Positions 1 to 17,907 of a stretch of DNA of 64,000 bases are shown here, in pieces. This DNA comes from Alphaproteobacteria bacterium (lineage in GTDB: Bacteria > Pseudomonadota > Alphaproteobacteria > Bin95): the NCBI GenBank assembly GCA_963665325.3, contig OZ224045.1:896001-960000 (forward strand). Direction: 5' to 3'. The notes beneath the pieces are model-generated. The model was not told the origin of the DNA and made no database searches. It saw nothing but the letters and a program-made list of their open reading frames with translations. The position numbers and the translations under genes were made by a program. How positions within the stretch are numbered: position 1 is the stretch's first letter; every line of letters begins with the position of its first letter.

Positions 1-1194
1 GCAGACCGGGCGGTCGCCATCGCCACGGAAGGCCGGCCCGGCCCGGTGCTGCTGGATGTGCCCATCGACGTCCAGACCCGCGAACAGCCCGCGCCGCCGC
101 CCCCGGAGCCCGCGCCCGCGCCGGTCGGCCCGGCCGAGGGCCCGGCGCTGGACGAGGCCCGGTCATGGCTTGCAGAGGCCCGCCGCCCGCTCGTCATCGC
201 CGGCCTCGACGTGCTGAACCAGGAGGCGGAGGCGGCCGTCGCGGCGTTCTGCCGGCGGTTCGGCGCGCCGCTCGTCACCAGCTACAAGGCGAAGGGCGTG
301 CTGCCGGAAGACGACCCGCTGGCGCTCGGCGGCGCCGGCCTCAGCCCGCGCGCGGACGGCCGCCTGCTGCCGGTCGTCGCGGCGTCGGACTGCGTGGTGC
401 TCGCCGGCTACGACCCTATCGAGATGCGCATCGGCTGGCGCGACCCCTGGGCGGACGGCGCGCGCGTCATCGACCTGCCGGCCGTCGCCGGCGGTCACGG
501 CATGCACCGGGCCCGGCTCGTGTTTCCGGGCGATGTCGCCGCCGGCCTGGAGGCGCTCGGCCGGGGGCAGGAGCCGCGCGAGACCTGGGCCGGGGGCGAG
601 CCGGCGGCGGCAAGCGCGGCGCTCCGGGCCGAAAGCCGGCTCGACGAGGACTGGGGCCCGGCGGCGGTCGTCGATGTGCTCCGCCGGTCGCTACCGCGCG
701 ACGCCGTGGTCACCACCGACAGCGGCGCGCACCGGATCGTGCTGAGCCAGCTCTTCGAGTGCTACCGCCCGCGCGGCCTGCTCCAGTCCACCGGGCTCTG
801 CACCATGGGCTGCGCGGTGCCGCTCGCCATCGGGCGCAAGCTGGCGGAGCCGGACCGCGCGGTGGTGGCGACGATAGGCGACGGGGGCCTGGAGATGTTC
901 CTCGGCGAGCTCGCCACGCTGCGCGACCTGAAGCTCGCCATCCCCATCCTCGTCTTCGTGGACACGCAGCTCGGCCTGATCGAGCTGAAGCAGCGCACAT
1001 CCCAACTCCCGAACCTCGCCGTGGACTTCGGCGCCACAGACTTCCCCGCCGTCGCAAGGGCGCTCGGCGGCGAAGGCGTCGCCGTCAGCGACCGCGCCGG
1101 CCTCGCGCGGGAGATGGAGGCGGCGTTGTCGCGAGACCGCTTCACGATTATCGCTGCCGAGATCGGCCGGCGGGCTTATGACGGGCGGATTTGA
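1..1194 (+). CDS. Thiamine pyrophosphate-dependent enzyme (acetolactate synthase large subunit-like), 5'-partial
   Basis: Frame open from base 1 (ADRAVAIATEGRPGPVLLDVPID); TPP-binding GDGG motif; TMGCAVPLAIG. Confidence 0.9.
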   Translation, partial: ADRAVAIATEGRPGPVLLDVPIDVQTREQPAPPPPEPAPAPVGPAEGPALDEARSWLAEARRPLVIAGLDVLNQEAEAAVAAFCRRFGAPLVTSYKAKGVLPEDDPLALGGAGLSPRADGRLLPVVAASDCVVLAGYDPIEMRIGWRDPWADGARVIDLPAVAGGHGMHRARLVFPGDVAAGLEALGRGQEPRETWAGGEPAAASAALRAESRLDEDWGPAAVVDVLRRSLPRDAVVTTDSGAHRIVLSQLFECYRPRGLLQSTGLCTMGCAVPLAIGRKLAEPDRAVVATIGDGGLEMFLGELATLRDLKLAIPILVFVDTQLGLIELKQRTSQLPNLAVDFGATDFPAVARALGGEGVAVSDRAGLAREMEAALSRDRFTIIAAEIGRRAYDGRI

Positions 1195-1292
1195 CTGGTG
1201 GCGGGGTGACCGCGGTCAAGGCGGCTTCGGTTCAACGTGGATGGTGTAGGGTGGGACAAACCGGAGTCAACAGGCGATGTACGGAAGAGGGT

Positions 1293-1739
1293 ATGGTTGA
1301 CATTGTGGACAGCAAGCGGCGCAGTGAACTTATGGCCGGGATCCGCGGCCGCGACACCGCTCCCGAACTCGCTGTCCGCCGCATCGCCCACCGCATGGGC
1401 TTGCGTTTCCGTCTCCACCGGAAAGGCCTACCTGGCCGCCCCGACCTTGTTTTCCCGAAGCACCGTCTCGCCGTCTTGGTGCACGGCTGTTTCTGGCACC
1501 TGCATGAGGGCTGCCCATTCTCCCACATTCCCAAAACGCGTACGGCCTATTGGGCCGACAAGTTTGAACGGAATGTCGCTCGCGACAAGCGCAACCGGGA
1601 AGCGTTGCAGGGCCTTGGATGGCGGGTTGTCCTTATTTGGGAATGCGAAGTCGGTGACGAAGAAGCGGTACGGCAGCGGTTGGCGGCGGCGACCGGACGC
1701 GGGGAATCGGGCTTTGCCGCTGCCGTCGCAATATGCTAG
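1293..1739 (+). CDS. vsr: Very short patch repair endonuclease
   Basis: MVDIVDSKRRSELMAGIRGRDTAPE, LPGRPDLVF, VHGCFWH, GWRVVLIWECE; adjacent to a C5 methyltransferase. Confidence 0.95.
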   Translation: MVDIVDSKRRSELMAGIRGRDTAPELAVRRIAHRMGLRFRLHRKGLPGRPDLVFPKHRLAVLVHGCFWHLHEGCPFSHIPKTRTAYWADKFERNVARDKRNREALQGLGWRVVLIWECEVGDEEAVRQRLAAATGRGESGFAAAVAIC

Positions 1740-1751
1740 GAGGCGCTGCTC

Positions 1752-2993
1752 ATGGAAGCGCCCGCGCAACCCGATTCGCGCCCGTCCTTCGTAGATGCGT
1801 TCGCAGGCTGCGGCGGCTTGAGCCTCGGCCTCAAGCGCGCAGGGTGGCAGGGGCTCTTTGCTATCGAGAAAGACCCCAACGCATTCCAAACCCTGTCGGC
1901 GAACTTCCCCACGGGCGACGGCCCGCTCTCCTATGCATGGCCTGAGGGAATAGAACGGCAGACTTGGGACATCCGAGAGTTGCTGTCGCAGCGCCAGCAG
2001 GTATTGAAGGGCCTTGAGGGCAAGGTGGACCTACTAGCGGGCGGGCCGCCTTGTCAGGGGTTTTCGCAGGCCGGACCGAGGCAGGCGGGCGACCCCCGAA
2101 ACACCCTCTTCGAGGCTTATCTGGAACTTGTCGAACTGCTGCGCCCGCGTTTCGTGCTCGTGGAGAATGTCCGGGGGTTCGCATCGGATTTCAAAGCGCG
2201 GGAATCCGGACCCGTCGAGAACTTTGCCGAGGCGCTGAAGCGAGGCCTTGAAGGGCAATATGACATTATGCCGGCATTCATCCGGGCCAGCGATTTCGGG
2301 GTGCCGCAGATGCGGCCCCGTTTCTTTCTGGTCGGGGCCCTCAAGGGAATGGAGGTGAGCGGAGGAATCGAAGCCTTTTTCGGTGACCTGCGGGAAGCAG
2401 CCCCTGGTTTCCTGTCAGAACGGGGGCTTCCAGAAAAGCCTAATGCCAAGGATGCAATCGGCGACCTTGAGACAGAGATAAACGGCACGATACTTTGCGA
2501 CGAATGCAAGGGATTCGAGAAGATCGGCTACAAAGCACCACGTACGGCCTACCAAAAGGCCATGCGCGACGGCTACAAGGGTGTCCCCTCTTGCACGCGA
2601 CTGGCCCGCCACAGGCCACATATCCGCGAGCGTTTTGCTTCCATCATTGCAGCGTGCAAGGAAGAGAAACGCCTCAATACATCGCTTTCGGCCAAGATGC
2701 GGTCCGACTACGGGCTCAGCAAATCAGGCCTCAGAGTCATGGACCCGAAAGCGCCTACACCAACTATTACCAGCCTGCCCGACGACCTTCTGCACTATTC
2801 CGAGCCGAGAACCCTAACCGTACGCGAAAATGCGCGGCTCCAATCCTTTCCCGATTGGTTTGAATTCAAGGGCAAATACACGACTGGTGGCGAACGGCGG
2901 CGCAACGAAGTCCCTCGGTTCACGCAAGTAGCAAATGCAGTTCCTCCCTTATTGGCGGAGCAAATTGGCCTAGCTCTCTTGCGAATACGCTAA
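1752..2993 (+). CDS. dcm: DNA (cytosine-5)-methyltransferase
   Basis: Motif I FAGCGG, motif IV GGPPCQGFS, motif VI ENV, motif VIII QMRPR, RENARLQSFPD, QVANAVPP. Confidence 0.95.
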   Translation: MEAPAQPDSRPSFVDAFAGCGGLSLGLKRAGWQGLFAIEKDPNAFQTLSANFPTGDGPLSYAWPEGIERQTWDIRELLSQRQQVLKGLEGKVDLLAGGPPCQGFSQAGPRQAGDPRNTLFEAYLELVELLRPRFVLVENVRGFASDFKARESGPVENFAEALKRGLEGQYDIMPAFIRASDFGVPQMRPRFFLVGALKGMEVSGGIEAFFGDLREAAPGFLSERGLPEKPNAKDAIGDLETEINGTILCDECKGFEKIGYKAPRTAYQKAMRDGYKGVPSCTRLARHRPHIRERFASIIAACKEEKRLNTSLSAKMRSDYGLSKSGLRVMDPKAPTPTITSLPDDLLHYSEPRTLTVRENARLQSFPDWFEFKGKYTTGGERRRNEVPRFTQVANAVPPLLAEQIGLALLRIR

Positions 2994-3937
2994 AGGCTTG
3001 GAGACCCGAGTTCATTCCGCAACACTTCACAAATGGCCTCCAACGCTCGCCGATGGATGCGGAGCTTCTTTCGAAAGCTCTGCATCCATTCGTCATCGAT
3101 TACTTCGACATCGCCTCGCCGTGTAGGACGTAAAATAATCTGACCATCGCTAGCAAATTCCTCGTTAGCATGCGCTAACAGGTTTCGATTGTCTATAATG
3201 TCTTGCTTGTACGACTGCAGGAAAGTATCTTCTTTCTCGAAATCTGCGTCTACTACTTTAGTCATCCTTACAATGGCACGGTATCTGTCGTAGGATGAAA
3301 ACAAACCAGTGTCCAAAACAACAGGAATTAATCCGTCCACTAATTTACCTCTTAACCGAGCAGAACGGCCCTCCATATTTTTGACAAGTTTCTCCGTCGT
3401 CCTCCTCTCCACTCGTAACACTCTCGGATTATTCAAGTTCAAAATAAATACAATCGCTTTTTCCATAATTATATCCATCTCCGCAACTTCTGCCATAGCA
3501 ATACCCCGCATCAGTGTAAGGTCTACCGCCTTTCCAATCACAGTATCTGCAATTCCTTTAAGAGGATCACTCAAATATCGCCTCTCTTCTACAAAAACTC
3601 CCGAAACTCCGTGTTCCAGAAGCTCTTTTTGCAACTCCCTGGTCGGAATTCCGGAATAAAACACCATATCTGTATACGGTAGAGTAACCCTTAGGCGTCT
3701 CGCCACCTGAGCACCATCAATGTCGTCATGGCCGAGATTGTAGTCGATCATAACGAGATTGAAACTCTTCCCCTTCCCCTTTTCGAGCTCCTGCAGTGAC
3801 TCTTCGGATATTTCATCCAAGTAACGCGAACTCAGGCTAAATCCCTTCGAGTCTAGGTGCTCTTCGAGAGTTCTGATTGCTTGTTGAAGACCTTCGGGAT
3901 TATCGTCCACAATCAAAAGAGAAAAATCGAGCTTCAT
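2990..3937 (-). CDS. Response-regulator receiver domain fused to a helical C-terminal domain with a HEPN-like RxxxxH motif
   Basis: LLIVDDN, phosphoacceptor-like MIDYNL, FYSG; C-terminal RNLLAH; start overlaps the kinase stop (ATGA). Confidence 0.75.
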   Translation of the reverse strand: MKLDFSLLIVDDNPEGLQQAIRTLEEHLDSKGFSLSSRYLDEISEESLQELEKGKGKSFNLVMIDYNLGHDDIDGAQVARRLRVTLPYTDMVFYSGIPTRELQKELLEHGVSGVFVEERRYLSDPLKGIADTVIGKAVDLTLMRGIAMAEVAEMDIIMEKAIVFILNLNNPRVLRVERRTTEKLVKNMEGRSARLRGKLVDGLIPVVLDTGLFSSYDRYRAIVRMTKVVDADFEKEDTFLQSYKQDIIDNRNLLAHANEEFASDGQIILRPTRRGDVEVIDDEWMQSFRKKLRIHRRALEAICEVLRNELGSPSL

Positions 3938-6207
3938 GTCGGTATCCTAAGCACCATGTGGGCACCGCTAAGCAGTTCGGACTGAGGCTCCTTTGGTGCC
4001 TCAACAAGCCCGCCCATGCCCTCCACCACCTGCTTGACGTGGTAAAGGCCAAGGCCAGAGCCATCTGTAGTTGTAACACCTTTTTCGAAGACGCGGCTTA
4101 CGGGCTCCATGGAAGACGGCCAGCCGGGTCCGTTGTCGCCAACGGAAATCCTGAGTTCAGGTTCTGGGCCTTTCCCGACATCTAAGGCAAATCCAATGTT
4201 GGTCGCGCGCGCTTTGGCCGCATTCGAAACGAGATTGTCGATAACAATACCGATCTCGATTGGGCGGAACGAGCGCGAGAAAGGCTTGCTATCACTTCCA
4301 AATTCCACCGCGATGCCCTGTGGAGCCCACAGAGCGGACACTGTTTCGATATAGTCGCGTATAAAGGCGGTGAGATCGGCTTTCACTTTCGCCGATTGCT
4401 GCCGGTATCCGCCTTTGGTTGCAAACCGCGCGGCCGTCAGGATTTGGCTGTTCCTGAATGAGACCTGCTCTAGGAAGTCCACCCAGTCGCCTTTTGTGAG
4501 GGCCGCACCGTTCCTAAGCTTAGCCATCATCCGGCGCACGCCCTCGTGGACATCCGAGGCATGCATAATGATCTGGTGGTGGAGATTGAGAATCGTGTCT
4601 TGGTCTAGGGACGAAACGGCTACTAGGAACTCGCTGCGTTTGCGTTCCTCCGCATATCTGGCCTCCGCAACTGTCTTAGCCCTAGATGCCGAGGCTGCTC
4701 TTCCCTCCGCCCGGCGTTCGGCCTCCCGTGCTTCTGCTTCAGCAGCTTGAAGAGCCTTGATACGCTTCTTGGCGTCGTCCACGCGAGCAAGAAGGACGTT
4801 GTCACCGGTTCTCTCGGCCAACAGTTCGAGGGCTTTTAGAGATGTTTCAAACGCTGACGACTTCGCGTCCACAATGCGCACAATATCTGGATTGTACTCC
4901 ACAAGGTCAATGCCATCGGTAGCAGCTAATCTGGACACCAGTTGTCCTATTTTAGCGCTGCTCTCGTCGAGCATCATCCGCGAAGTGTCTTGAATGTCTT
5001 TATCAAATTTATCCGCCCAAGAGATATCTACGACATATCGTTCAAGGCGTCTAATGCATTTCGCTATAAAGCAGTCTATCAGCTCTTCGACTTGTTGTGT
5101 GCGGATAAGCCCCTGGTCCCGGCTCGTTGCCTCGACAAACCCATCGACGCCTTTGATTTGTACGTGGCCAATCAGGTCCCGAGTTCCCAGAAATCGTCTC
5201 ATCCCTTGCTGTTTTCGATGAAGCAAGCGAAAAAAGTCGTCTGTTTGATCTCCAATTGGAAATACCCGAAAGCCATTACGAAATAGGAAAATTGATCCGA
5301 AGGCAACACTTTGTATTCCCATCCGATGGGCGAATAACGTTTTGGCTCCACGGTTCAAGAAATAGATTTCTGAAGTGAATTGCGACTTTGTCAATTTTTC
5401 GTACTGATTCTTTTCCCTGATTCTATAAATTGTTTCGCCGCGATCCGTGAGATGGGTTTGGATGATTGCGCCGTTGTCTACTATTTCTACCTTTATTGTG
5501 GTTGTTCGTTGTTTCAACACATTAAGAATTTCGTTAGTAACCTCACCACTCAGGGATGATTTTCCTTTGATGTGCAAATTTATGCGAAACTTGGTCTCTT
5601 CGTCAGAAAATGGATTGATTAACTTCGCAAGTTCCCGGCGCAATTTTTGAAAATCCTCGTCGCTCCATGCGTGCCGCAAAGAGGTAATTTCAAGTATCGT
5701 TCCTTTCTTGGTGTGCGGAAACATGTCGAATGAGGGAAGGTTGACGTCTTCCCGAATTTCGACTTCGATATCCCCAAATTCTTGCTTGGAATTTTGTTCG
5801 TATCTTGTCCAGTCAATGTCCAATACTTGTACGGGGCCAATATGAGAGCGAGAATTGAGTACTAGACGACTTCCAAGGCGATCACACGAAAACCTCCCGA
5901 TGCCCTTAGCGCCGGCAAAAGGGCGACTTCGGTCTGCAACCTTGTCACGGTAGTCTTGATCCTCAGTGCCGTCTCGCTTTGCGGAATAGGCAACAAATAG
6001 CCATTTGTCGAGAATGTCGCGTCGGGACATTCCCTTGCCGTTGTCCGCGATGACAATCCTGTCATCCTCAAAGCAAATGTGGACAGAGTCAGCATGGGCG
6101 TCAAAAGAATTCTTGACCAGTTCAAAGACGGCTACGAAGTCGTTGGTGATCAGCTCACGTCCGATCAGGTCCTTCAACCCGGTACTGACCCTGAACGCTT
6201 TCTGCAT
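3934..6207 (-). CDS. MORC/MutL-like GHKL ATPase fused to a C-terminal histidine kinase
   Basis: N-terminal ELVKNSFDA, DNGKGM, GAKGIGRFS; coiled coil; then H-box-like LHHQI, N-box DNLVSNA, DNGPG, VFEKGVTT, GSGLGLY. Confidence 0.88.
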   Translation of the reverse strand: MQKAFRVSTGLKDLIGRELITNDFVAVFELVKNSFDAHADSVHICFEDDRIVIADNGKGMSRRDILDKWLFVAYSAKRDGTEDQDYRDKVADRSRPFAGAKGIGRFSCDRLGSRLVLNSRSHIGPVQVLDIDWTRYEQNSKQEFGDIEVEIREDVNLPSFDMFPHTKKGTILEITSLRHAWSDEDFQKLRRELAKLINPFSDEETKFRINLHIKGKSSLSGEVTNEILNVLKQRTTTIKVEIVDNGAIIQTHLTDRGETIYRIREKNQYEKLTKSQFTSEIYFLNRGAKTLFAHRMGIQSVAFGSIFLFRNGFRVFPIGDQTDDFFRLLHRKQQGMRRFLGTRDLIGHVQIKGVDGFVEATSRDQGLIRTQQVEELIDCFIAKCIRRLERYVVDISWADKFDKDIQDTSRMMLDESSAKIGQLVSRLAATDGIDLVEYNPDIVRIVDAKSSAFETSLKALELLAERTGDNVLLARVDDAKKRIKALQAAEAEAREAERRAEGRAASASRAKTVAEARYAEERKRSEFLVAVSSLDQDTILNLHHQIIMHASDVHEGVRRMMAKLRNGAALTKGDWVDFLEQVSFRNSQILTAARFATKGGYRQQSAKVKADLTAFIRDYIETVSALWAPQGIAVEFGSDSKPFSRSFRPIEIGIVIDNLVSNAAKARATNIGFALDVGKGPEPELRISVGDNGPGWPSSMEPVSRVFEKGVTTTDGSGLGLYHVKQVVEGMGGLVEAPKEPQSELLSGAHMVLRIPT

Positions 6208-6359
6208 TCCTAACGATGTTCCAACCGTTGATTAAGAAACGGCAGGGAAGGCCCTGCTGCCTGCATTCATGCTGGTCGCTGCGGGCTGTTCCGTCAAGCC
6301 TTCGTTGCTACGCGGCCGGTTGCTGGTTGCGAGGAGAGCGGAGAAGCGACCCAGCCGGG

Positions 6360-6408
6360 GAGTACCGCAAAAGAGGTTGAATCCGTCCACATGGACGAAC
6401 CTGCGCAC
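6360..6408 (-). pseudogene. N-terminal relic of an NYN (LabA/DUF88) PIN-like nuclease
   Basis: GTG start then (M)RRFVHVDGFNLFCG, resembling the NYN YVDGFNLYYG motif; similarity is lost afterwards. Confidence 0.5.
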
Positions 6409-6424
6409 CGGAACCTGCCAAGAA

Positions 6425-6480
6425 AGCAGAGGCCTCCGAAGAGGCCCCGCGCCGGGCGGTCGAAACCGCAAGGAGTGTTG
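6425..6480 (-). ncRNA. Candidate structured leader RNA with two UUCG hairpins
   Basis: Minus strand reads GCGGT-TTCG-ACCGC then GGCCTC-TTCG-GAGGCC immediately upstream of the NYN relic. Confidence 0.4.
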
Positions 6481-6527
6481 ACGGCAATCTATACCTTCCC
6501 TCCTAGACTATCGAGCGGACTCGAGGA

Positions 6528-6923
6528 TCAGACCCGCCGCCCCCGCGCAAGGCGTTCCTTCCGCTGCAAGCCGTGGCGCTCCAGGAAGCGCTGTACCGTG
6601 GCGGCGCTGACGGTCAGGCCCTCGACCGCCAGCGCGGCCCGCAGCGCCGGGATGGTTAGCTTCGGGCGCTGCTTCAGCAGGCGGAACACCAGTGCGCGCG
6701 CCGGCTCGATCCGAGACGGCGGGCGTCGGCGCGGGTCCGCCCGGACATTGCCGCGCTGGCGGTAGCGCTGGACCCACCGATGGACGCTGGTCTGGGCGAC
6801 CTCGAATTTCAGCGCCGCTTCGCGAAAGCTCATGCCCCGCTCGAGCACCGCCGCCACCGCCCGGCGGCGCAGGTCCTCGCCTACCGCCTTGCCCGGCTTC
6901 GGCCCCGCCAATTCGTCCGCCAT
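6528..6923 (-). CDS. IS630-family OrfA-like HTH protein without the DDE domain
   Basis: DLRRRAVAAVLERGMSFREAALKFEVAQTSVHRWV...PKLTIPALRAALAVEGLTVSAATVQRFLERHGL; no catalytic ORF follows. Confidence 0.65.
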   Translation of the reverse strand: MADELAGPKPGKAVGEDLRRRAVAAVLERGMSFREAALKFEVAQTSVHRWVQRYRQRGNVRADPRRRPPSRIEPARALVFRLLKQRPKLTIPALRAALAVEGLTVSAATVQRFLERHGLQRKERLARGRRV

Positions 6924-7401: not shown

Positions 7402-7659
7402 GTGATCGAATCTCGTAACTGACTAGACTCATTGAAGAATTCACCCTTGAATTGATGGTGTGGAAGCCATAATCCTAAATCAGTCATCAAGTCGAAAGCA
7501 GAATTTTTCAATATCAGGTCGGCCGTCGGCAGCGTCTGGCAACGCATTACCATTTTCGAGCGTCGAGGCCAATGTAACCGTTCGGGTCCCGGGGGATCGT
7601 AGCCTCCCACTGATTTTTCTCACTGGTAACTAAGTCGCGCATGCGCTACCGTCTCGCGC

Positions 7660-9825
7660 ATGGCGGTTCTCGAGGCGGATTTCGTCACCGACCTGACGCC
7701 GGCCGAGGGCGGCGACATGCTGTGGTCGCTTCCCGTCGTGGCGCCGGCGCGCGAGCCGCTCGACTGGGCGTCTCTGCTTGAAGAGGCGGAGGCGCGCGTC
7801 AAGGAGGAACGGGGCCGCGCGGCTGTGGCGGAGTTGCGCCGCGAGGAACTGCGCCGGTCGGAGAGCGATGCCCGAGCGCTTGCGGACTCGCTGACGAGGC
7901 AGCTCGACACCTGCCGGTTCAAGCTCAAGACGGCGACCTCGAAGACCGCGTCGCGGGCCGCGAAGGGGTTGGAGCGCAGGGTCGAGTCCCAGGACGACGA
8001 AATCGCCGATCTTCGCCTCACGCTGCGCAGGTCTCACGAGCGCCAGGAGCGGATCGAAAAACGCCACCAGGACGAGATCAACTGGCTGAAGCAGGACATC
8101 GACCGGGAGCGCTCGCGGATCGCGAAGGTGTACCGCAAGGGCGAGCGCGTGGCCGGGTCGCTGCGCAAGCAGTTCGACCGGCAGCTCGCGGCGGCCAGGC
8201 GGCTGGTGGAGACCCGGGAGGGCACGATCGCATGGCTGCGCGAACGCAACGCCCGGATGCGGGCGGCGATCGTGCGGGCCACGGAGCTGATCGCCTCGCT
8301 GCGGGAGAAGAATACCCGGCTGCGCGCCGAGGTGCGGGATCTGAAGGACGAGAACGCGGCGCTGGCCTCGCAGGTCGAGACGCTGCAAGCCCAGCTCGAC
8401 AAGCTGCGCTCGACCCGGAGCGTCCTGTCGAAGGCGCTCTACGGCAGCAGGAGCGAGCAGCAGAAGAGGCCGGGCACCGGGCGCAAGCGCGGCCAGCAGC
8501 GCGGCGCCGCCGGGCACGGCCGCACCCAGCGCCCCGGGCTCGGGCAGAAGAAGGAACCGCGCGACCCGCCTGAGGAAGCGCGTGTGTGTCCGCGTTGCGG
8601 CAAGCCCTACGCCGCCAACGGCGAGCGCTGCACCACTCTCTTCGAGATCGATGTCGAGGCCTACGAGAACACCATCGTGCGGTCGCGCTGGCGCCACAGT
8701 TGCGACTGCGCCTCCGCGCCGCGGGAGGTGACCGCGCCGCCGGTGACGCGGCTGTTCGAGACCACGCCCTACGGGATCAGCGTATGGACGTGCATGCTCT
8801 ACGAGCGCTTCGTCTGCTGCCGTCCCCTGCATCGGGTCGCGGCCTGGCTGGCCGACATGGGGCTGGCGATCTCGCCGGGGACCCTGGCCGACAGCATCAA
8901 GCGCTTCGTGCCGCTGTTCGAACCGTTGGCCGAGGCGATCCTCGCGCACCAGAACGAGGCCGCGCTGCGCCACGCCGACGAAACATCCTGGCGCGTTCAG
9001 GCGTATCGCGAGAAAGGCCGGTCGAGCCGCGCCTGGTTGTGGATCTCGGTCAGCAACGATGCCGTCTACTTCCACATCGACCCCTCGCGCAGCGCCGAGG
9101 TCGCGATGAAGCTGTTCGGTTCGGTCAAGGATACCGTGGTCCTGGTCTGCGACCGGTTCAGCGCCTACAGGAAGCTGGCTCGCGAACTCGCCGGCAAGGT
9201 GATCCTGCAATGGTGCTGGGCACATCAAAGGCGCTCGTTCATCGACCGTGCCGCCGGTCATGTGCGGCTCAGGCGCTGGTGCCAGAGATGGATCGAGCGG
9301 ATCGCGCTGATCTACCGGCTGAACGACGATCGGCTGGAGCATTACGACCCCGCTCACCCCCTCGAACGACAGTCGCCGGCGTTCGATATCGCGCACGCCA
9401 AGCTGAAGAAGGAGGTCGACGAGCTGTTCGCAGCCGCCGAAGCGGAACTGGCCGGGCTGACGGACAGGGCGCGCAGGGCCAAGCCGCTGCGCTCGCTTCT
9501 CAACCACCGCGGGGGGCTGTGCGTCTTCGTCGACAAGCCGTTCGTGCCCATGGACAACAACCGCGGCGAGCTCTCGTTGCGCTTCGCGGTTATCGGACGA
9601 CGGCTCTCGTTCGGCTCCGACAGCGAGAAAGGCGCCGGGTTCACGGCGACGATGTACTCGGTGGCTGGCACGCTGGCGATCAACGGCATCGACGTCCGGC
9701 GCTGGCTCAGGGAATGGCTGACCGCGTGCGCGGAAAACGGCGGCAATCCGCCGGACGACCTCTCGCCCTGGCTGCCGTGGTCGATGAGCGAGGAGCGCCG
9801 GCGCGAACTCACGGCGTCGGGATGA
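7660..9825 (+). CDS. IS66-family DDE transposase (TnpC-like) with long N-terminal coiled coil
   Basis: YGSRSE, Zn finger CPRC...HSCDC, HADET, LVCDRFSAY, CWAHQRR, DNNRGELSLR. Confidence 0.93.
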   Translation: MAVLEADFVTDLTPAEGGDMLWSLPVVAPAREPLDWASLLEEAEARVKEERGRAAVAELRREELRRSESDARALADSLTRQLDTCRFKLKTATSKTASRAAKGLERRVESQDDEIADLRLTLRRSHERQERIEKRHQDEINWLKQDIDRERSRIAKVYRKGERVAGSLRKQFDRQLAAARRLVETREGTIAWLRERNARMRAAIVRATELIASLREKNTRLRAEVRDLKDENAALASQVETLQAQLDKLRSTRSVLSKALYGSRSEQQKRPGTGRKRGQQRGAAGHGRTQRPGLGQKKEPRDPPEEARVCPRCGKPYAANGERCTTLFEIDVEAYENTIVRSRWRHSCDCASAPREVTAPPVTRLFETTPYGISVWTCMLYERFVCCRPLHRVAAWLADMGLAISPGTLADSIKRFVPLFEPLAEAILAHQNEAALRHADETSWRVQAYREKGRSSRAWLWISVSNDAVYFHIDPSRSAEVAMKLFGSVKDTVVLVCDRFSAYRKLARELAGKVILQWCWAHQRRSFIDRAAGHVRLRRWCQRWIERIALIYRLNDDRLEHYDPAHPLERQSPAFDIAHAKLKKEVDELFAAAEAELAGLTDRARRAKPLRSLLNHRGGLCVFVDKPFVPMDNNRGELSLRFAVIGRRLSFGSDSEKGAGFTATMYSVAGTLAINGIDVRRWLREWLTACAENGGNPPDDLSPWLPWSMSEERRRELTASG

Positions 9826-10703
9826 CCGGCGCGGTCGAGTGCCGCTACCACGGCCGAGACTTCACCGCCGAGGAAATGGCGCTGCTGCGCGCGCTCATCG
9901 CCGGTCCCGCATCGCTCTCCCGCCGCGCCCTGTCGATCGAGTTCTGCCGGCGCATCGGCTGGATCAAGCCCGACGGCGGGCTCAAGGATATGATGGCCCG
10001 CGTCACCATGCTCGCCATGCACCGCGACGGCCTCATCGAACTGCCGCCGCCCAGGTGGCAGCGGGGACGGCCCAGGCCCATCGTCTTCGGACCCGACACC
10101 GAGCCGCCGCTGTTCCCCGCGCCCACGACCCTCGACGAGGTCCGTCCGCTCGACTTCCGCGCCGTCGTGCACAGCACCCGGGAAGGCAGGCTCTGGAACG
10201 AGTTCGTCGCCCGCTACCATTATCTCGGATACAAGACCCTGGTCGGCGCCCAGATGCGCTACGCCGTCCACGACCGAAACGGCTGGCCCGTCGCCATGCT
10301 CGGCTTCTCCACCGCCGCCTGGAAGCTCGCCCCGCGCGACAACTTCATCGGATGGTCGCCCGAAAAGCGCGAGAAGAACCTCCCGCTCGTGGTCGACAAC
10401 CCGCGCTTCCTGATATTGCCGTGGATCCAGATCCCCAACCTCGGATCGCACATCCTCGCCATCGTGCGCCGGCGCCTGCCCACCGACTGGACCGAGCGCT
10501 ACGGCACCACCCCCGTGCTGATCGAAACCTTCGTCGAGACCCCGCGATACACCGGCGCCGTCTACAAGGCGTCGGGCTGGACCCGCGTCGGGACCACCCA
10601 GGGCCGTGGCCGCTACGACAGGCATACCAAACGAGCTCAGCCGAAAAAGGACATCTGGCTCCGCCCCCTCCGAAAAGATTGGCAACGCACCCTCAATCGG
10701 TAG
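9822..10703 (+). CDS. DUF4338 (DruA-like, Mom/GNAT-like) protein inside IS66
   Basis: RYHYLGY, RDNFIGW, NPRFLILPW, NLGSHIL, ETFVETPRYTGAVYKASGW, GTTQGRGR; ATGA-coupled to the transposase stop. Confidence 0.85.
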   Translation: MTGAVECRYHGRDFTAEEMALLRALIAGPASLSRRALSIEFCRRIGWIKPDGGLKDMMARVTMLAMHRDGLIELPPPRWQRGRPRPIVFGPDTEPPLFPAPTTLDEVRPLDFRAVVHSTREGRLWNEFVARYHYLGYKTLVGAQMRYAVHDRNGWPVAMLGFSTAAWKLAPRDNFIGWSPEKREKNLPLVVDNPRFLILPWIQIPNLGSHILAIVRRRLPTDWTERYGTTPVLIETFVETPRYTGAVYKASGWTRVGTTQGRGRYDRHTKRAQPKKDIWLRPLRKDWQRTLNR

Positions 10704-10838
10704 AATCACACCCGGTCGCGACCAGGTGCGGGTAAGCATGCCAACAAGCGGATAACCTCCTCCTCATCCCCCGGGACCCGAACGGTTACAGGCCAATTCG
10801 AGGCCGAATTGGGTGAGAACCGATTCATTCGTATACGT

Positions 10839-11669
10839 TCACGTCTCGTCCAGAGCGATCCTTACGCTGTTTTCTCCATGGGTGATGAGCTTTCTGTCCT
10901 CTTGGGGCCCTTCGGCGAAGACGACGCCCTGGAGGATCAGAGCCCTTCTCGCGCTGCCGTCCATCGGTAACTCGATTGTCCAGACCGCACTGCCGCTTAC
11001 GCCACCATGGGTCCGGGGAATCCACGGATCGTCGCTCGTAATGGCGTACTCACCGTAGTCCCAACCATCCTCGTCTGTCGCCTGTTCTGCTGTCCTGCCT
11101 ATCAGCATGCCGTGGGCGACCACCATGTTCTCGCCCAGGTCGCTCGCGGCGTGGACGAATCCGAAAACAATTCCGATCTGGCATACTTCGCCCTCGAACG
11201 CATCGCGCGGTCTCGCCCTGTTGCGGAAGACGGCACCAAGTGCCTCCATCCTCTCCACATCTTCTCCCGACAAGGGCATCCAGCCGATATCCGGACCCAA
11301 CGGCCCTTGGTTGGCTTCTCCCCGGCCTGTCATGCCCGCGCCTTCAATCCTGATCCAGTTGACCAGTTCTCGGTCCTGGGCCGGGAGCACGAGGATGTTC
11401 TGCCTGGCCTTGACGGCGCCGATGACGTGCCCGGCCGTCAGAATGCCATGCTGGCCATCGGTTCTTCTGACAAACGTTCCGGAACCGATTGGTGTCAGCT
11501 GCCCCTCCGCGCCGTAACCGATGATCGTCGTGTATCGGCGTACGAGATCGGCCAGGATCCGCGGCGCAGTCTCGGGATTCAACTGGTCCTCCTGGAAGAT
11601 ACCGGTCCTCGCAAGGTAGCCCGAAACTTCGGACCAGCCGGCGGTCACGATCGCGGGTTCTGGAGCCAT
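10839..11669 (-). CDS. Trypsin-like serine protease domain protein
   Basis: GSGTFV, ILTAGHVI (His), PDIG (Asp), GGVSGSAV (Ser); no signal peptide seen. Confidence 0.6.
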   Translation of the reverse strand: MAPEPAIVTAGWSEVSGYLARTGIFQEDQLNPETAPRILADLVRRYTTIIGYGAEGQLTPIGSGTFVRRTDGQHGILTAGHVIGAVKARQNILVLPAQDRELVNWIRIEGAGMTGRGEANQGPLGPDIGWMPLSGEDVERMEALGAVFRNRARPRDAFEGEVCQIGIVFGFVHAASDLGENMVVAHGMLIGRTAEQATDEDGWDYGEYAITSDDPWIPRTHGGVSGSAVWTIELPMDGSARRALILQGVVFAEGPQEDRKLITHGENSVRIALDET

Positions 11670-11975
11670 GATGCATTCCGTTCTGTTCGGTGGCGGGTCA
11701 TACTGGGAGATGGTGGGCGATTGGAAATCTGAGGCCGGCGGGTTTGGGCGAAGTCTATAGGGATGCGGTGCTCTTCGGGCGGCGATGGCGTTGTGCAACG
11801 TGATGTGGCGGGATGGGCATGGTCTAGCCGGATGTATTCACGTCGATTAAATCGGAGGGTTTGGAGCGCGCAGGGGTGGGCGTTCGGCGCCGCTACGGTG
11901 CCGGGATCTGAAGTTTTCGAAGTCGAAGTTGAGGGTTGAGCCGGCTCGGGTTGGTGGGGCACGCCGCCCCGTCGG

Positions 11976-12855: not shown

Positions 12856-12941
12856 GTAACCGTTCGGGTCCCGGGGGATGAGGAGGAGGTTATCCGCTTG
12901 TTGGCATGCTTACCCGCACCTGGTCGCGACCGGGTGTGATT

Positions 12942-13823
12942 CTACCGATTGAGGGTGCGTTGCCAATCTTTTCGGAGGGGGCGGAGCCAGATGTCCTTTT
13001 TCGGCTGAGCTCGTTTGGTATGCCTGTCGTAGCGGCCACGGCCCTGGGTGGTCCCGACGCGGGTCCAGCCCGACGCCTTGTAGACGGCGCCGGTGTATCG
13101 CGGGGTCTCGACGAAGGTTTCGATCAGCACGGGGGTGGTGCCGTAGCGCTCGGTCCAGTCGGTGGGCAGGCGCCGGCGCACGATGGCGAGGATGTGCGAT
13201 CCGAGGTTGGGGATCTGGATCCACGGCAATATCAGGAAGCGCGGGTTGTCGACCACGAGCGGGAGGTTCTTCTCGCGCTTTTCGGGCGACCATCCGATGA
13301 AGTTGTCGCGCGGGGCGAGCTTCCAGGCGGCGGTGGAGAAGCCGAGCATGGCGACGGGCCAGCCGTTTCGGTCGTGGACGGCGTAGCGCATCTGGGCGCC
13401 GACCAGGGTCTTGTATCCGAGATAATGGTAGCGGGCGACGAACTCGTTCCAGAGCCTGCCTTCCCGGGTGCTGTGCACGACGGCGCGGAAGTCGAGCGGA
13501 CGGACCTCGTCGAGGGTCGTGGGCGCGGGGAACAGCGGCGGCTCGGTGTCGGGTCCGAAGACGATGGGCCTGGGCCGTCCCCGCTGCCACCTGGGCGGCG
13601 GCAGTTCGATGAGGCCGTCGCGGTGCATGGCGAGCATGGTGACGCGGGCCATCATATCCTTGAGCCCGCCGTCGGGCTTGATCCAGCCGATGCGCCGGCA
13701 GAACTCGATCGACAGGGCGCGGCGGGAGAGCGATGCGGGACCGGCGATGAGCGCGCGCAGCAGCGCCATTTCCTCGGCGGTGAAGTCTCGGCCGTGGTAG
13801 CGGCACTCGACCGCGCCGGTCAT
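12942..13823 (-). CDS. DUF4338 protein, copy 2
   Basis: Translation identical to 9822-10703. Confidence 0.85.
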   Translation of the reverse strand: MTGAVECRYHGRDFTAEEMALLRALIAGPASLSRRALSIEFCRRIGWIKPDGGLKDMMARVTMLAMHRDGLIELPPPRWQRGRPRPIVFGPDTEPPLFPAPTTLDEVRPLDFRAVVHSTREGRLWNEFVARYHYLGYKTLVGAQMRYAVHDRNGWPVAMLGFSTAAWKLAPRDNFIGWSPEKREKNLPLVVDNPRFLILPWIQIPNLGSHILAIVRRRLPTDWTERYGTTPVLIETFVETPRYTGAVYKASGWTRVGTTQGRGRYDRHTKRAQPKKDIWLRPLRKDWQRTLNR

Positions 13824-15985
13824 CCCGACGCCGTGAGTTCGCGCCGGCGCTCCTCGCTCATCGACCACGGCAGCCAGGGCGAGAGGTCGTCCGGCGGATT
13901 GCCGCCGTTTTCCGCGCACGCGGTCAGCCATTCCCTGAGCCAGCGCCGGACGTCGATGCCGTTGATCGCCAGCGTGCCAGCCACCGAGTACATCGTCGCC
14001 GTGAACCCGGCGCCTTTCTCGCTGTCGGAGCCGAACGAGAGCCGTCGTCCGATAACCGCGAAGCGCAACGAGAGCTCGCCGCGGTTGTTGTCCATGGGCA
14101 CGAACGGCTTGTCGACGAAGACGCACAGCCCCCCGCGGTGGTTGAGAAGCGAGCGCAGCGGCTTGGCCCTGCGCGCCCTGTCCGTCAGCCCGGCCAGTTC
14201 CGCTTCGGCGGCTGCGAACAGCTCGTCGACCTCCTTCTTCAGCTTGGCGTGCGCGATATCGAACGCCGGCGACTGTCGTTCGAGGGGGTGAGCGGGGTCG
14301 TAATGCTCCAGCCGATCGTCGTTCAGCCGGTAGATCAGCGCGATCCGCTCGATCCATCTCTGGCACCAGCGCCTGAGCCGCACATGACCGGCGGCACGGT
14401 CGATGAACGAGCGCCTTTGATGTGCCCAGCACCATTGCAGGATCACCTTGCCGGCGAGTTCGCGAGCCAGCTTCCTGTAGGCGCTGAACCGGTCGCAGAC
14501 CAGGACCACGGTATCCTTGACCGAACCGAACAGCTTCATCGCGACCTCGGCGCTGCGCGAGGGGTCGATGTGGAAGTAGACGGCATCGTTGCTGACCGAG
14601 ATCCACAACCAGGCGCGGCTCGACCGGCCTTTCTCGCGATACGCCTGAACGCGCCAGGATGTTTCGTCGGCGTGGCGCAGCGCGGCCTCGTTCTGGTGCG
14701 CGAGGATCGCCTCGGCCAACGGTTCGAACAGCGGCACGAAGCGCTTGATGCTGTCGGCCAGGGTCCCCGGCGAGATCGCCAGCCCCATGTCGGCCAGCCA
14801 GGCCGCGACCCGATGCAGGGGACGGCAGCAGACGAAGCGCTCGTAGAGCATGCACGTCCATACGCTGATCCCGTAGGGCGTGGTCTCGAACAGCCGCGTC
14901 ACCGGCGGCGCGGTCACCTCCCGCGGCGCGGAGGCGCAGTCGCAACTGTGGCGCCAGCGCGACCGCACGATGGTGTTCTCGTAGGCCTCGACATCGATCT
15001 CGAAGAGAGTGGTGCAGCGCTCGCCGTTGGCGGCGTAGGGCTTGCCGCAACGCGGACACACACGCGCTTCCTCAGGCGGGTCGCGCGGTTCCTTCTTCTG
15101 CCCGAGCCCGGGGCGCTGGGTGCGGCCGTGCCCGGCGGCGCCGCGCTGCTGGCCGCGCTTGCGCCCGGTGCCCGGCCTCTTCTGCTGCTCGCTCCTGCTG
15201 CCGTAGAGCGCCTTCGACAGGACGCTCCGGGTCGAGCGCAGCTTGTCGAGCTGGGCTTGCAGCGTCTCGACCTGCGAGGCCAGCGCCGCGTTCTCGTCCT
15301 TCAGATCCCGCACCTCGGCGCGCAGCCGGGTATTCTTCTCCCGCAGCGAGGCGATCAGCTCCGTGGCCCGCACGATCGCCGCCCGCATCCGGGCGTTGCG
15401 TTCGCGCAGCCATGCGATCGTGCCCTCCCGGGTCTCCACCAGCCGCCTGGCCGCCGCGAGCTGCCGGTCGAACTGCTTGCGCAGCGACCCGGCCACGCGC
15501 TCGCCCTTGCGGTACACCTTCGCGATCCGCGAGCGCTCCCGGTCGATGTCCTGCTTCAGCCAGTTGATCTCGTCCTGGTGGCGTTTTTCGATCCGCTCCT
15601 GGCGCTCGTGAGACCTGCGCAGCGTGAGGCGAAGATCGGCGATTTCGTCGTCCTGGGACTCGACCCTGCGCTCCAACCCCTTCGCGGCCCGCGACGCGGT
15701 CTTCGAGGTCGCCGTCTTGAGCTTGAACCGGCAGGTGTCGAGCTGCCTCGTCAGCGAGTCCGCAAGCGCTCGGGCATCGCTCTCCGACCGGCGCAGTTCC
15801 TCGCGGCGCAACTCCGCCACAGCCGCGCGGCCCCGTTCCTCCTTGACGCGCGCCTCCGCCTCTTCAAGCAGAGACGCCCAGTCGAGCGGCTCGCGCGCCG
15901 GCGCCACGACGGGAAGCGACCACAGCATGTCGCCGCCCTCGGCCGGCGTCAGGTCGGTGACGAAATCCGCCTCGAGAACCGCCAT
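13820..15985 (-). CDS. IS66-family transposase, copy 2
   Basis: Translation identical to 7660-9825. Confidence 0.93.
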   Translation of the reverse strand: MAVLEADFVTDLTPAEGGDMLWSLPVVAPAREPLDWASLLEEAEARVKEERGRAAVAELRREELRRSESDARALADSLTRQLDTCRFKLKTATSKTASRAAKGLERRVESQDDEIADLRLTLRRSHERQERIEKRHQDEINWLKQDIDRERSRIAKVYRKGERVAGSLRKQFDRQLAAARRLVETREGTIAWLRERNARMRAAIVRATELIASLREKNTRLRAEVRDLKDENAALASQVETLQAQLDKLRSTRSVLSKALYGSRSEQQKRPGTGRKRGQQRGAAGHGRTQRPGLGQKKEPRDPPEEARVCPRCGKPYAANGERCTTLFEIDVEAYENTIVRSRWRHSCDCASAPREVTAPPVTRLFETTPYGISVWTCMLYERFVCCRPLHRVAAWLADMGLAISPGTLADSIKRFVPLFEPLAEAILAHQNEAALRHADETSWRVQAYREKGRSSRAWLWISVSNDAVYFHIDPSRSAEVAMKLFGSVKDTVVLVCDRFSAYRKLARELAGKVILQWCWAHQRRSFIDRAAGHVRLRRWCQRWIERIALIYRLNDDRLEHYDPAHPLERQSPAFDIAHAKLKKEVDELFAAAEAELAGLTDRARRAKPLRSLLNHRGGLCVFVDKPFVPMDNNRGELSLRFAVIGRRLSFGSDSEKGAGFTATMYSVAGTLAINGIDVRRWLREWLTACAENGGNPPDDLSPWLPWSMSEERRRELTASG

Positions 15986-16071
15986 GCGCGAGACGGTAGC
16001 GCATGCGCGACTTAGTTACCAGTGAGAAAAATCAGTGGGAGGCTACGATCCCCCGGGACCCGAACGGTTAC

Positions 16072-16540
16072 CGTCGATGTCGAGCGTGATCGCCGCCGGC
16101 GGGGACGCGAAGGAGCGGCAGAAGATGTCGACCAGGGCGGCCGTCAGGCGCCCCGTCTCGCTACTGGACGGCGCGTTCTCCAGCCGGCTCATGGTAGGCT
16201 GCGAACAGAGATCGCGGCCGCTCTCCGGCGCCCGGCCGACCGCCAGCTTGAACAGCGGATCGGCGCGCAGGTCGTCGCAATCGTCGGCGTCCTCATACCC
16301 GCAGGCGATCGCGAACATGCGGAACCGAAGCATCGCCGGCAGGCTGTGGACGACCCGGTCGGGGTCGCGCCATTCCCGGATGCAGCCGGCCAGCGTCTCG
16401 GCCAGGCCGAGCCGGCGCTCCGCCCCGCGCAGCAGGACCAGCCCACCGTCCGACGAGATCGAACCGCCGGCGAAATCGGCAGTCACCTTCTTGCGGCTTA
16501 CGGCTGGAAGATCGAACGGGAGAAGGGTATCATCGGTCAT
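16072..16540 (-). pseudogene. IS1380 transposase, 5' part
   Basis: FAGGSISSDGGLVLL, GYEDADDCDDLRADP, SQPTMSRLEN, ITLDID; rejoins in frame as LDID-ETCDAVHG when one TSD copy is removed. Confidence 0.9.
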
Positions 16541-16865
16541 GGCGGGCGTGGCGCTTTCGTTGCTTCGGCAGAAATGCGCTGGGAAACGAATTTCTACCCG
16601 AATCCAACGGGTTACGCCACGTTCGCCACCATGCCTTCAGACCCTGATGAATACATCAGGTTAGACCGGTTGCCGGGGCAGGTCAATGGCGAGTACTCGA
16701 CATGGCGAGTACTCGGCTGTATTCCGTCTGACACTTCTGTCCGACGCCCAGCAAGAGGATTATCTCGACGATGTTTGGCAGGTCTCGCATATTTCTGCCA
16801 TCGTTGAAAACCGTATTAGAAGGCTAATGACAACTGGGCTCCGAACAACAAAGGACTAATGGTAA

Positions 16866-17519
16866 ATGCCATCAAGCGCACTAAGGAAGTTCGAAGGCCC
16901 AATGATGCGGGATGTTGAGCGCATTATTGCGACGCATGCGGATATGCAGGCAGGGAGCCCTGGGAACATGGGACTTGGGCATCTGACAAGAGCAGGCGTT
17001 CTTTTCCTATGCGCCGCATGGGAATTATACATTGAGGAAGTGCTGAATGAAAGTATCAAACACTGCATCCAGAAGAGTTCGTCACCTGAAGATCTCCCAA
17101 AAACGGTAAAGAAGACAATTTCCCAATACGTACGTGATTCCAAACATCAACTCAAGCCAATCGGTATGGCAGGAGACGGCTGGAAAACGATTTACTCTGA
17201 AATCGCTAGCGAATGGGTCGTCGGACTCAATACACCCAAATCTCACAATATCGATCAAGGTTTTCGTACACTCGTGGGTATTGAAAAATTATCTGAAAAC
17301 TGGTCTTTAGGGGCCGCCGTAGTGAATAGCTTCGTCGAAGTTAGAGGGGATATAGCGCACCGTGGATCGGATGCAGGCAACGTTCATATGAGTACGTTGA
17401 AGAATGCCTATAAAGAACAAATTACAAAATGTGTCCTTGAAACAGATAATGCTTTATCGAATTACATCAGGAATGCGTTTTCTCCTACAAGCTATCCATG
17501 GAACCGGCGTCAAATATAG
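16866..17519 (+). CDS. HEPN-domain protein (RiboL-PSP/MAE_28990-like)
   Basis: RAGVLFLCAAWELYIEE, LNTP, and RGDIAH (Rx4H); AT-rich. Confidence 0.7.
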   Translation: MPSSALRKFEGPMMRDVERIIATHADMQAGSPGNMGLGHLTRAGVLFLCAAWELYIEEVLNESIKHCIQKSSSPEDLPKTVKKTISQYVRDSKHQLKPIGMAGDGWKTIYSEIASEWVVGLNTPKSHNIDQGFRTLVGIEKLSENWSLGAAVVNSFVEVRGDIAHRGSDAGNVHMSTLKNAYKEQITKCVLETDNALSNYIRNAFSPTSYPWNRRQI

Positions 17520-17819
17520 TCTTCGTATTCGTTACTTGGGCAGATCGGCTAATTGCAGTCTGCGGTCGGGTTCTGTAGTCAAGCAGCATACTAAGATCCA
17601 CGCTGGGGCAGGATCATGCTTCTGTATACGGTTAGCCCGGTGGCCGCCGGTAGCTTGGGTCAAGCGCGGGGGGGCGGGTCAATCCAGCGGTCGGGCTCAC
17701 GAGGTGGCTCAGCAATTTTCTCGACCTCACCCATTTCGGTTTTCCCTGGCCTCGGGACATCTGCTACGCGGGTTCTTCTAAGTGATCGCTCGCAGCTGCC
17801 TTTTGCTCGCCGGGGGGCG

Positions 17820-17907
17820 GCGGAAGACGTGATGGCCCGTCCATATCCTGTGAAGCATGATCGCCAGCTTCGTGGTGACCGCGAATACGGCTCTCTTCTG
17901 TCGCCGG
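17820..17907 (-). pseudogene. Degenerate IS110-family transposase C-terminus
   Basis: Manual translation RRQKRAVFAVTTKLAIMLHRIWTGHHVFR resembles the IS110 AVARKLAVILHRMW motif. Confidence 0.5.

Follow-up and report, generated by a model that had tools for sequence, protein, structure and literature searches.

The locus examined here raises the question of what a DNA methyltransferase works with when no restriction enzyme can be recognized beside it. It lies in a stretch of 64,000 nucleotides from an Alphaproteobacteria bacterium (assembly GCA_963665325.3, contig OZ224045.1, positions 896,001 to 960,000), which is called the window in this text, and comprises a vsr gene and a C5 cytosine DNA methyltransferase (C5-methylase) gene that converge on a two-gene operon for a soluble histidine kinase and a receiver (REC) protein. 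A preliminary description of this cassette, based on the letters of the window, had suggested that the receiver carries a HEPN-like ribonuclease (RNase) tail and that the system acts in place of a restriction enzyme. The analysis reported here points to a methylase-linked, phosphorelay-gated abortive defense, a reading that we hold to be reasonably probable.

The receiver protein and its tail

Pfam and NCBIfam gave a weak receiver domain call for the protein of 315 amino acids (aa). The fold of its REC part was matched to solved receiver domains with a Z score of 15.2 (root mean square deviation of 2.2 over 123 aligned residues), and a fold search with the full-length model returned receiver-type folds only. 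Conservation was assessed in an alignment of 129 sequences (the query and 128 of the 150 listed representatives, 288 to 335 aa in length), in which the homologues mostly show 22 to 60% identity. D65, whose counterpart in 3a0u is the beta-3 Asp, was found in 129/129 sequences, and Ser or Thr was found at position 95 in 126. With the receiver fold, the acidic pair, the phospho-Asp, and the Ser/Thr all present, the protein displays the features of a two-component receiver.

The remainder of the protein contains an Rx4H motif, and the Rx4-6H motif constitutes the HEPN RNase site (PMC3710099, cited throughout from its accessible portion). The resemblance noted in the preliminary description held up in conservation, profile, and dimer analyses. 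R251 and H256 were invariant (129/129), with Asn following the Arg in 125 sequences; the Rx4H motif is conserved across homologues. R144 was likewise present in 129/129 sequences, and an acidic residue of helix 1 (D/E155), which aligns with the conserved Asp of MtlR-like HEPNs, was present in 127/129. Alignment of the tail by hhalign with six motif-bearing MtlR-like HEPNs gave a probability of 80% (92.7% when an insertion was left out and 0.3% when reversed). The score of 44.5 compared to 17.8 for the best among 40 column shuffles, and both the first helix (RG...D) and the RNxxAH helix were in register with the MtlR-like proteins. Sets of classical MtlR, RiboL-PSP, MAE_28990, and DUF4145 proteins reached 0.3 to 13% over short stretches only.

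A profile of the tail was also ranked against 28,440 genome open reading frames (ORFs), 619 of which carry RNxxxH, and 707 ORFs from HEPN loci. Twelve distinct HEPN-clan proteins (MtlR-like, RiboL-PSP, and MAE_28990; E of 0.02 to 9.6) outranked every genome ORF except the receiver itself. After masking of the motif, the top two nonself matches were a true MtlR and an MtlR-like protein, both of them weak (E of 0.28 and 3.6). Weak Pfam matches of the HEPN type recurred among 147 family members (Swt1 in 14, RiboL-PSP in 8, MAE_28990 in 7, ApeA in 6, Abi_2 in 3, and Cthe2314 in 2), and unrelated families reached at most 3 of the 147. The ESM Atlas returned unnamed clusters only, with a score of <0.9 for the tail. 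In a word-seeded search with the tail profile, the 120 matches listed out of 197 all apparently belonged to the same family, and PF05068 (the MtlR family) was absent among the matches listed for the tail. The tail is modeled entirely as helices, apart from a beta-hairpin that follows the motif.

A homodimer of the receiver protein was predicted with a score of 0.73, compared to 0.00 for the best control; the pass mark was attained by 20/30 solved pairs and 1/23 single chains. The homodimer runs agreed in at least 87% of their contacts, and the pLDDT was 78 or higher. The interface includes aa 250 to 251 and 254 to 256 as well as REC aa 87 to 132, and the best contacts pack helix 140-168 of one chain against helices 204-228 and 285-311 of its partner, which amounts to a swap of helix 1. 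These models support a helix-swapped homodimer, in which the alpha4-beta5-alpha5 face of the receiver would share the dimer interface with the swapped HEPN domains. We judge it very probable that the receiver ends in a HEPN domain of the MtlR-like type, and this domain is predicted, with fairly good confidence, to be catalytically active as an RNase.

As a separate observation, the next two genome ORFs in the tail-profile ranking (G000:C3:1286527-1287105 and G000:C1:2143490-2144242) carry RNxxAH; they score weakly and may be unannotated HEPN proteins.

Sensor kinase, methylase, and conserved core

The 757-aa protein had been described as having two GHKL modules and an LHHQI box of the histidine kinase type and no transmembrane helix, and domain searches, hydropathy, and conservation all agreed with this description. 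Pfam matched HATPase_c_3 at aa 24 to 150 (E of 1e-20) and HATPase_c at aa 651 to 756 (E of 2e-19). The kinase is considered to lack a transmembrane helix because its highest 19-residue hydropathy was only 1.26. In an alignment of 65 sequences, the invariant His of LHHQI was the second one, H544 (65/65). E29, N33, and D55 of the N-terminal ATPase were kept in 64/65 sequences, its glycine motif was also conserved, and the C-terminal kinase domain retained N658 and N662 in 64, D691 in 63, and G716, G718, and G720 in 64; the protein thus has the His box and the N, G1, and G2 boxes of a two-component kinase. NF050001 matched aa 15 to 211 (E of 3e-23, far under the full-length cutoff), and the PADLOC model REase_II matched the same N-terminal ATPase part (E of 5e-10). 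Since this part is closest to the ATPase of the BbrUII/HgiDII family, the kinase looks, as judged from its sequence, like a paraMORC restriction enzyme whose nuclease was swapped for a kinase. A hidden DNase in the kinase was considered and rejected; after the ATPase module, there is neither room nor a match for one. No restriction nuclease catalytic domain was found in the four cassette proteins, with the matches to restriction endonucleases confined to the N-terminal ATPase of the kinase, and the earlier statement that the cassette lacks a recognizable restriction endonuclease stands.

The catalytic motifs P-C101-Q and E138-N-V were present in 53/53 members of the methylase clade, and with these motifs intact the methylase is probably an active methyltransferase. 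Of the 5-mers in the core genes, CCWGG showed the strongest depletion (0.65 of the synonymous-shuffle expectation; 0.53 to 0.74 by gene). We do not call it the methylase site, because neighboring genes were depleted too (0.82) and the sequences are related. In one other locus, Vsr and methylase share a single 582-aa open frame (L004:8940-10688), a possible fusion.

Searches with the receiver yielded 343 homologues among 3,402 scored candidates. Clustering at 50% gave 795 representatives at E up to 0.001 and 427 at E up to 1e-10, of which the weak ones may be ordinary receivers, and a scan of genome contigs with the single receiver protein gave only 9 close loci. We collected 97 receiver loci, corresponding to 78 groups at 90% identity. 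The kinase was located directly upstream of the receiver in 65/66 groups having upstream sequence, and a C5-methylase was located within 4.8 kb in 39/39 fully flanked groups (in L006, just a fragment of 91 aa), either convergent, as in the window, or codirectional and upstream. The expected co-occurrence of kinase and receiver homologues with C5-methylases was thus observed. Of the four-gene synteny that had been anticipated, the kinase and methylase parts were confirmed but the vsr part was not: Vsr was found in only 12/39 fully flanked groups and was rejected as a core component. The conserved core consists of three genes, those for methylase, kinase, and receiver.

A nuclease was found within two genes in 19/39 groups (16 by script, together with minus-strand neighbors in L006, L057, and L076); this count is based on 142 representative neighbors of at least 120 aa, and several of the nucleases belong to separate restriction-modification (R-M) systems. 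The other 20 fully flanked groups had no recognizable nuclease within this distance. The proposal that the system acts in place of a restriction enzyme is compatible with about half of the fully flanked loci. Neighbors of the cassette include AbiH, AbiEii, AIPR, and PtuAB-like genes and type I and III R-M genes.

Among 401 sampled genomes of the phylum, the receiver was present in 4 and the methylase clade in 7, with all 4 among the 7. One of the three methylase-only genomes carries a DndH-like three-gene module and another a McrB/McrC-like pair, and in the third the methylase lies at a contig edge. We propose that the methylase would serve for self-marking with interchangeable restriction partners and that the kinase-receiver pair would fill that slot. 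The gene trees were broadly congruent (distance correlations of 0.51 to 0.62 compared to permutation maxima of 0.13 to 0.27; 44 loci). This is consistent with joint transfer of the genes; we do not take it as proof, because shared descent alone can produce the same pattern. With the receiver as the only query, neither a set of 72,556 plasmids nor one of 50,697 phages gave a match. Five viral contigs (L094 to L098) carry methylase, kinase, and receiver, two of them with a Pnkp-like phosphatase, and a CI-type repressor upstream in L094 suggests prophage cargo. The three-gene system is widespread but patchy.

Several related arrangements were observed in the course of these searches. In seven loci (L008, L016 to L018, L030, L064, and L191), the same C5-methylase clade stands beside a DndH-like protein of ~1,800 aa and partners of ~500 and ~700 aa; this trio is alone with the methylase in L191 and occurs alongside the kinase-receiver pair elsewhere. 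DndFGH is treated as stand-alone in the accessible text of PMC10853773, and the link between methylase and DndH-like protein may be new or a chance colocation. A Stenotrophomonas plasmid (L193:4655-9447) encodes a methylase, a kinase, a 212-aa receiver, and a 226-aa ORF; a Deinococcus plasmid (L194:4538-9505) encodes an Eco57I-type methylase, a kinase, a 215-aa receiver, and an HNH protein; and an archaeal branch of the paraMORC kinases (L195:5974-10161) has a different receiver. None of these three receivers carries RNxxxH, which suggests that the outputs are swappable. Three receiver homologues are longer (P0006, P0167, and P0169, with 405, 431, and 846 aa); P0006 contains HATPase_c, and they may be kinase-receiver fusions or frameshift artifacts.

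The commonest noncore neighbor was a HAD phosphatase of ~150 aa, found in 11 loci (10/78 groups), where its gene belongs to the operon and either follows that of the receiver directly or separates those of the methylase and the kinase. Its DxDGT and DDR motifs are invariant and intact, and it matches the Pnkp1 phosphatase (E of 1e-30) and polynucleotide kinase (T4-Pnkp-like). A search with the A6 profile did not detect a Pnkp-type phosphatase in the genome of the window. HEPN RNases leave 2′,3′-cyclic phosphates (PMC3710099), and Pnkp1 is described in the accessible part of PMC4411300 as acting in RNA repair after ribotoxin cleavage. An RNA-end phosphatase fits RNA cleavage by the receiver tail, and the HAD phosphatase could instead act on the phospho-Asp.

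Proposed mechanism and alternatives

In the abortive defense that we propose, the C5-methylase would mark self DNA and the paraMORC ATPase would be the sensor, either clamping unmarked DNA or responding to a lost or inhibited methylase. Sensing would alter the phosphorylation of H544 and then of the receiver D65. Phosphorylation would in turn reposition the two R251-x4-H256 motifs so that together they form a functional composite RNase site, a step that we consider because the REC alpha4-beta5-alpha5 face lies in the predicted HEPN dimer interface. The RNase would cut host RNA (tRNA or rRNA, by analogy with PrrC), and the infected cell would be arrested or killed, while in some loci the Pnkp-type 3′-phosphatase would heal the cut RNA ends after accidental firing. 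We give phosphorylation as the activating state a modest preference over the reverse polarity.

Several results weigh against this reading. The proposed comparison of the tail model with HEPN folds did not bear out the assignment: when the tail was searched by itself, the fold matches were generic helical bundles (best Z of 6.6) and included no HEPN, and Foldseek with the isolated tail gave zero matches at E of 0.001 or better. The tail profile retrieved no HEPN from the PDB sequences, only seven weak unrelated matches. Sequence E values to known HEPNs are weak (best, 0.02) and under the Pfam cutoffs, and the HEPN comparison sets were picked by the analyst after the resemblance to MtlR had been noticed. 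Among solved HEPN types, the closest is MtlR, which acts as a regulator and in many cases is inactive (PMC3710099). In the receiver, R119 replaces the canonical Lys after beta-5 (Arg in 125/129 sequences and Lys in 3), a Lys described in the accessible portion of PMC8011034, and receiver switching may therefore be atypical. PADLOC 2.0 produced zero matches for the receiver and only partial REase_II/TmtA ATPase matches for the kinase, so that none of its models identified the cassette as a named defense system. Finally, a nuclease is found near 19/39 loci, and in some of them the kinase-receiver pair may control this enzyme or serve as its backup instead of taking its place.

An addiction module of reversed polarity would account for the patchy distribution (4/401 genomes), the low GC content and nearby insertion sequence (IS) elements, the presence of the cassette on viral contigs, and the tight kinase-receiver coupling (65/66). 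As long as methylase and kinase are produced, the kinase would hold the receiver-HEPN protein in a phosphorylated, silent state, and loss of the element or host shut-off would let the phospho-Asp decay and free the RNase; the mobile island would be maintained in this way, with defense as a by-product. The dimer model is silent on which state is active. However, this explanation leaves both the retention of the methylase (39/39) and the intact restriction-type ATPase sensor unexplained, and no match to the receiver was found among the plasmids searched with this single query. We regard it as unlikely.

We also consider it rather improbable that the genes form a nonlethal regulatory two-component system. 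In such a system, the tail would bind RNA or protein as an MtlR-like regulator, or act as a narrow RNase, and would tune expression of the methylase or of a separate restriction enzyme. The Arg and His of the motif are invariant here, whereas noncatalytic MtlRs lose the motif (PMC3710099); moreover, 20/39 loci have no recognizable nuclease within two genes, and the recurrent RNA-end phosphatase fits RNA cleavage. A regulatory role has been proposed for a sister family in PMC8011034, as far as its accessible text goes, and would agree with the position of MtlR, a regulator, as the nearest HEPN branch and with the nuclease near 19/39 loci. In the last alternative, the tail would not be a HEPN domain, and RNxLAH would have a structural or ligand-binding role in a new helical fold that has another output. 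This agrees with the failed monomer fold and PDB sequence searches and with the unnamed ESM Atlas clusters, but is very improbable given the profile ranking, the motif-masked and hhalign controls, and the six recurring HEPN-type Pfam families (unrelated ones, ≤3/147), and the predicted helix swap would explain why a monomer search fails.

The abortive defense described above could be one part of a wider picture, which we offer tentatively: a widespread immunity in which a restriction-enzyme-derived ATPase reads DNA methylation and passes the signal along a His-Asp relay to a HEPN RNase fused to a receiver, with a Pnkp-type reset, as one branch of a larger paraMORC-kinase family with swappable receiver-borne effectors. 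Two-component systems are usually regarded as environmental sensors that drive transcription, and our literature search found no anti-phage system with a His-Asp relay to a toxic RNase at its core. If the proposal is true, it would give an output to the methylase-linked paraMORC kinases, which have been known from computational work since 2021, and would account for a class of C5-methylases that appear to be orphans. The system would also offer a compact set of three genes for probing the cue to which bacterial MORC ATPases respond, a question relevant to the eukaryotic MORCs as well, with a single-residue handle for each step (E29, H544, D65, R251/H256, and C101), and a methylation-responsive kinase could serve as a sensor in synthetic biology.

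Genomic context and known systems

The four ORFs and both four-base overlaps of the preliminary description were all recovered (Table 1): the stop codons of methylase and receiver share CTAA (2990-2993), and the kinase stop and receiver start share ATGA (3934-3937).

Table 1. Positions of the cassette genes and of their predicted domains and residues in the window
Feature	Position	Strand	Details
vsr	1293-1739	+	148 aa counted from ATG; PF03852, E of 7e-27; TIGR00632, E of 2e-40, over cutoff; accessory
C5 cytosine DNA methyltransferase	1752-2993	+	413 aa; PF00145, E of 5e-52
Receiver-HEPN protein, predicted effector	2990-3937	-	315 aa; AlphaFold pLDDT of 93.5
Receiver (REC) domain, aa 1-137	3527-3937	-	D11/D12, phospho-acceptor D65 (3743-3745), S95, Arg119
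Probable MtlR-like HEPN domain, aa 138-315	2993-3526	-	Insertion of ~35 residues (aa 170-205); RNLLAH, aa 251-256 (3170-3187)
Soluble paraMORC-type ATPase and histidine kinase fusion	3934-6207	-	757 aa; two GHKL domains
N-terminal GHKL ATPase, ~aa 1-220 of kinase	5548-6207	-	Kin to ATPase of BbrUII/HgiDII-family restriction enzymes
H544 codon, predicted autophosphorylated histidine	4576-4578	-	Sole invariant His in kinase alignment, 65/65

The cassette is real and horizontally acquired. A contig from a public run is identical to window positions 1166-6873 (zero differences), although this run may be the window's own source, and a run from a second study matches the window in pieces, e.g., 1451-4230. 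The cassette genes have a GC content of 45 to 63%, compared to 67% for the genome, and a third-position GC of 0.46 to 0.70, compared to 0.93 in the upstream acetolactate-synthase-like gene. They are single copy in the genome of the window and are followed by IS630-like, IS66, and DDE transposases. No empty-site junction was found among the public contigs examined, no RNA data set was listed among those holding the sequence, and promoter and terminator scans of the cassette reached chance level only.

Further along the window, two identical 3.2-kb copies containing IS66 (7574-10789 and 12856-16071) stand in inverted orientation with a DDE transposase and an unknown gene between them, an arrangement that resembles a composite transposon. 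A 319-aa ORF (10839-11798, minus strand) has no Pfam, NCBIfam, or PADLOC match; its TAGHV and GGVSGS motifs may be those of a trypsin-type serine protease. A stand-alone RiboL-PSP-HEPN gene (16866-17519, plus strand; PF18735, E of 6e-16) sits in a segment of 5.4 kb (12856-18282) that includes an IS66 copy and is duplicated at 99.3% at G000:C1:437326-442753.

Among known systems, the closest are pairs of HEF_HK (PF19191) and Response_reg_2 (PF19192) beside C5-methylases and Vsr, which were described computationally by Bellieny-Rabelo et al. in 2021 (PMC8011034, whose accessible portion is used here). These pairs share with the window cassette a soluble kinase with HATPase_c_3, His box, and HATPase_c directly upstream of a receiver and beside a C5-methylase, and their loci often include Vsr or HNH. 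Unlike them, the window proteins match neither PF19191 nor PF19192 at E up to 1, while positive controls do match. Membership in these families was rejected, since both models missed; PF19192 had no match in the genome of the window and weak matches in 10/147 receiver homologues. Four HEF_HK/Response_reg_2 loci encode kinases of 975 to 1,078 aa (E of 1e-14 to 1e-20 to the window kinase) and receiver ORFs of 587 to 721 aa, which match the window receiver in the REC part only and lack R[NDH]x3-4H. Their output domain is not named in the accessible part of PMC8011034. On these sequence comparisons, the window cassette is a sister branch of HEF_HK/Response_reg_2.

PrrC-EcoprrI and the paraMORC-Ymh fusions (Anantharaman et al., 2013, PMC3710099) resemble the cassette in placing an ATPase-controlled HEPN RNase beside a DNA modification system and are proposed or shown there to fire upon restriction failure. 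In PrrC and paraMORC-Ymh, a single polypeptide joins the HEPN domain to an ABC ATPase or a paraMORC, whereas here ATPase and HEPN domain are on separate proteins with a His-Asp relay between them; unlike the PrrC-EcoprrI R-M loci, about half of the receiver-HEPN loci show no nearby nuclease. A REC-HEPN fusion is not listed in the accessible portion of PMC3710099. The paraMORC ATPases of R-M systems (Iyer et al., 2008, PMC2292703, as far as accessible) and the BbrUII/HgiDII family (NF050001) have the same N-terminal GHKL ATPase with intact motifs and the same linkage to cytosine methylase and Vsr, but a coiled coil, the His box, and a kinase domain stand here where the BbrUII/HgiDII enzymes have their C-terminal nuclease. 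The terms "receiver" and "two-component" are absent from the main text of PMC2292703. As in type II R-M systems, the methyltransferase motifs are present; a cognate restriction endonuclease, however, is unrecognizable in the window cassette. With the MtlR-family HEPNs (PF05068; PDB entries 3brj and 3c8g, cited in PMC3710099), the tail shares the RG...D and RNxxAH helices, in register with the motif-bearing MtlR-like proteins, and differs from this family by its fusion to REC and by the insertion.

In the legend of DefensePredictor Fig. 6F, of which the accessible part was used, HATPase and REC appear among the predicted systems that are unvalidated, and this entry may be the receiver-HEPN family or its sister family. 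A full-text literature search, which left subscription papers outside, found no description of the receiver-HEPN output and no experimental work on the cassette. The preliminary description had named no experimental account of the logic as a whole. Since the layout of kinase, receiver, methylase, and Vsr is already described computationally in the accessible text of PMC8011034, only the HEPN output is new within it; what the present family adds to the known systems is this output, the coupling predicted between it and the receiver dimer, a phosphatase for RNA ends, and a methylase with interchangeable partners.

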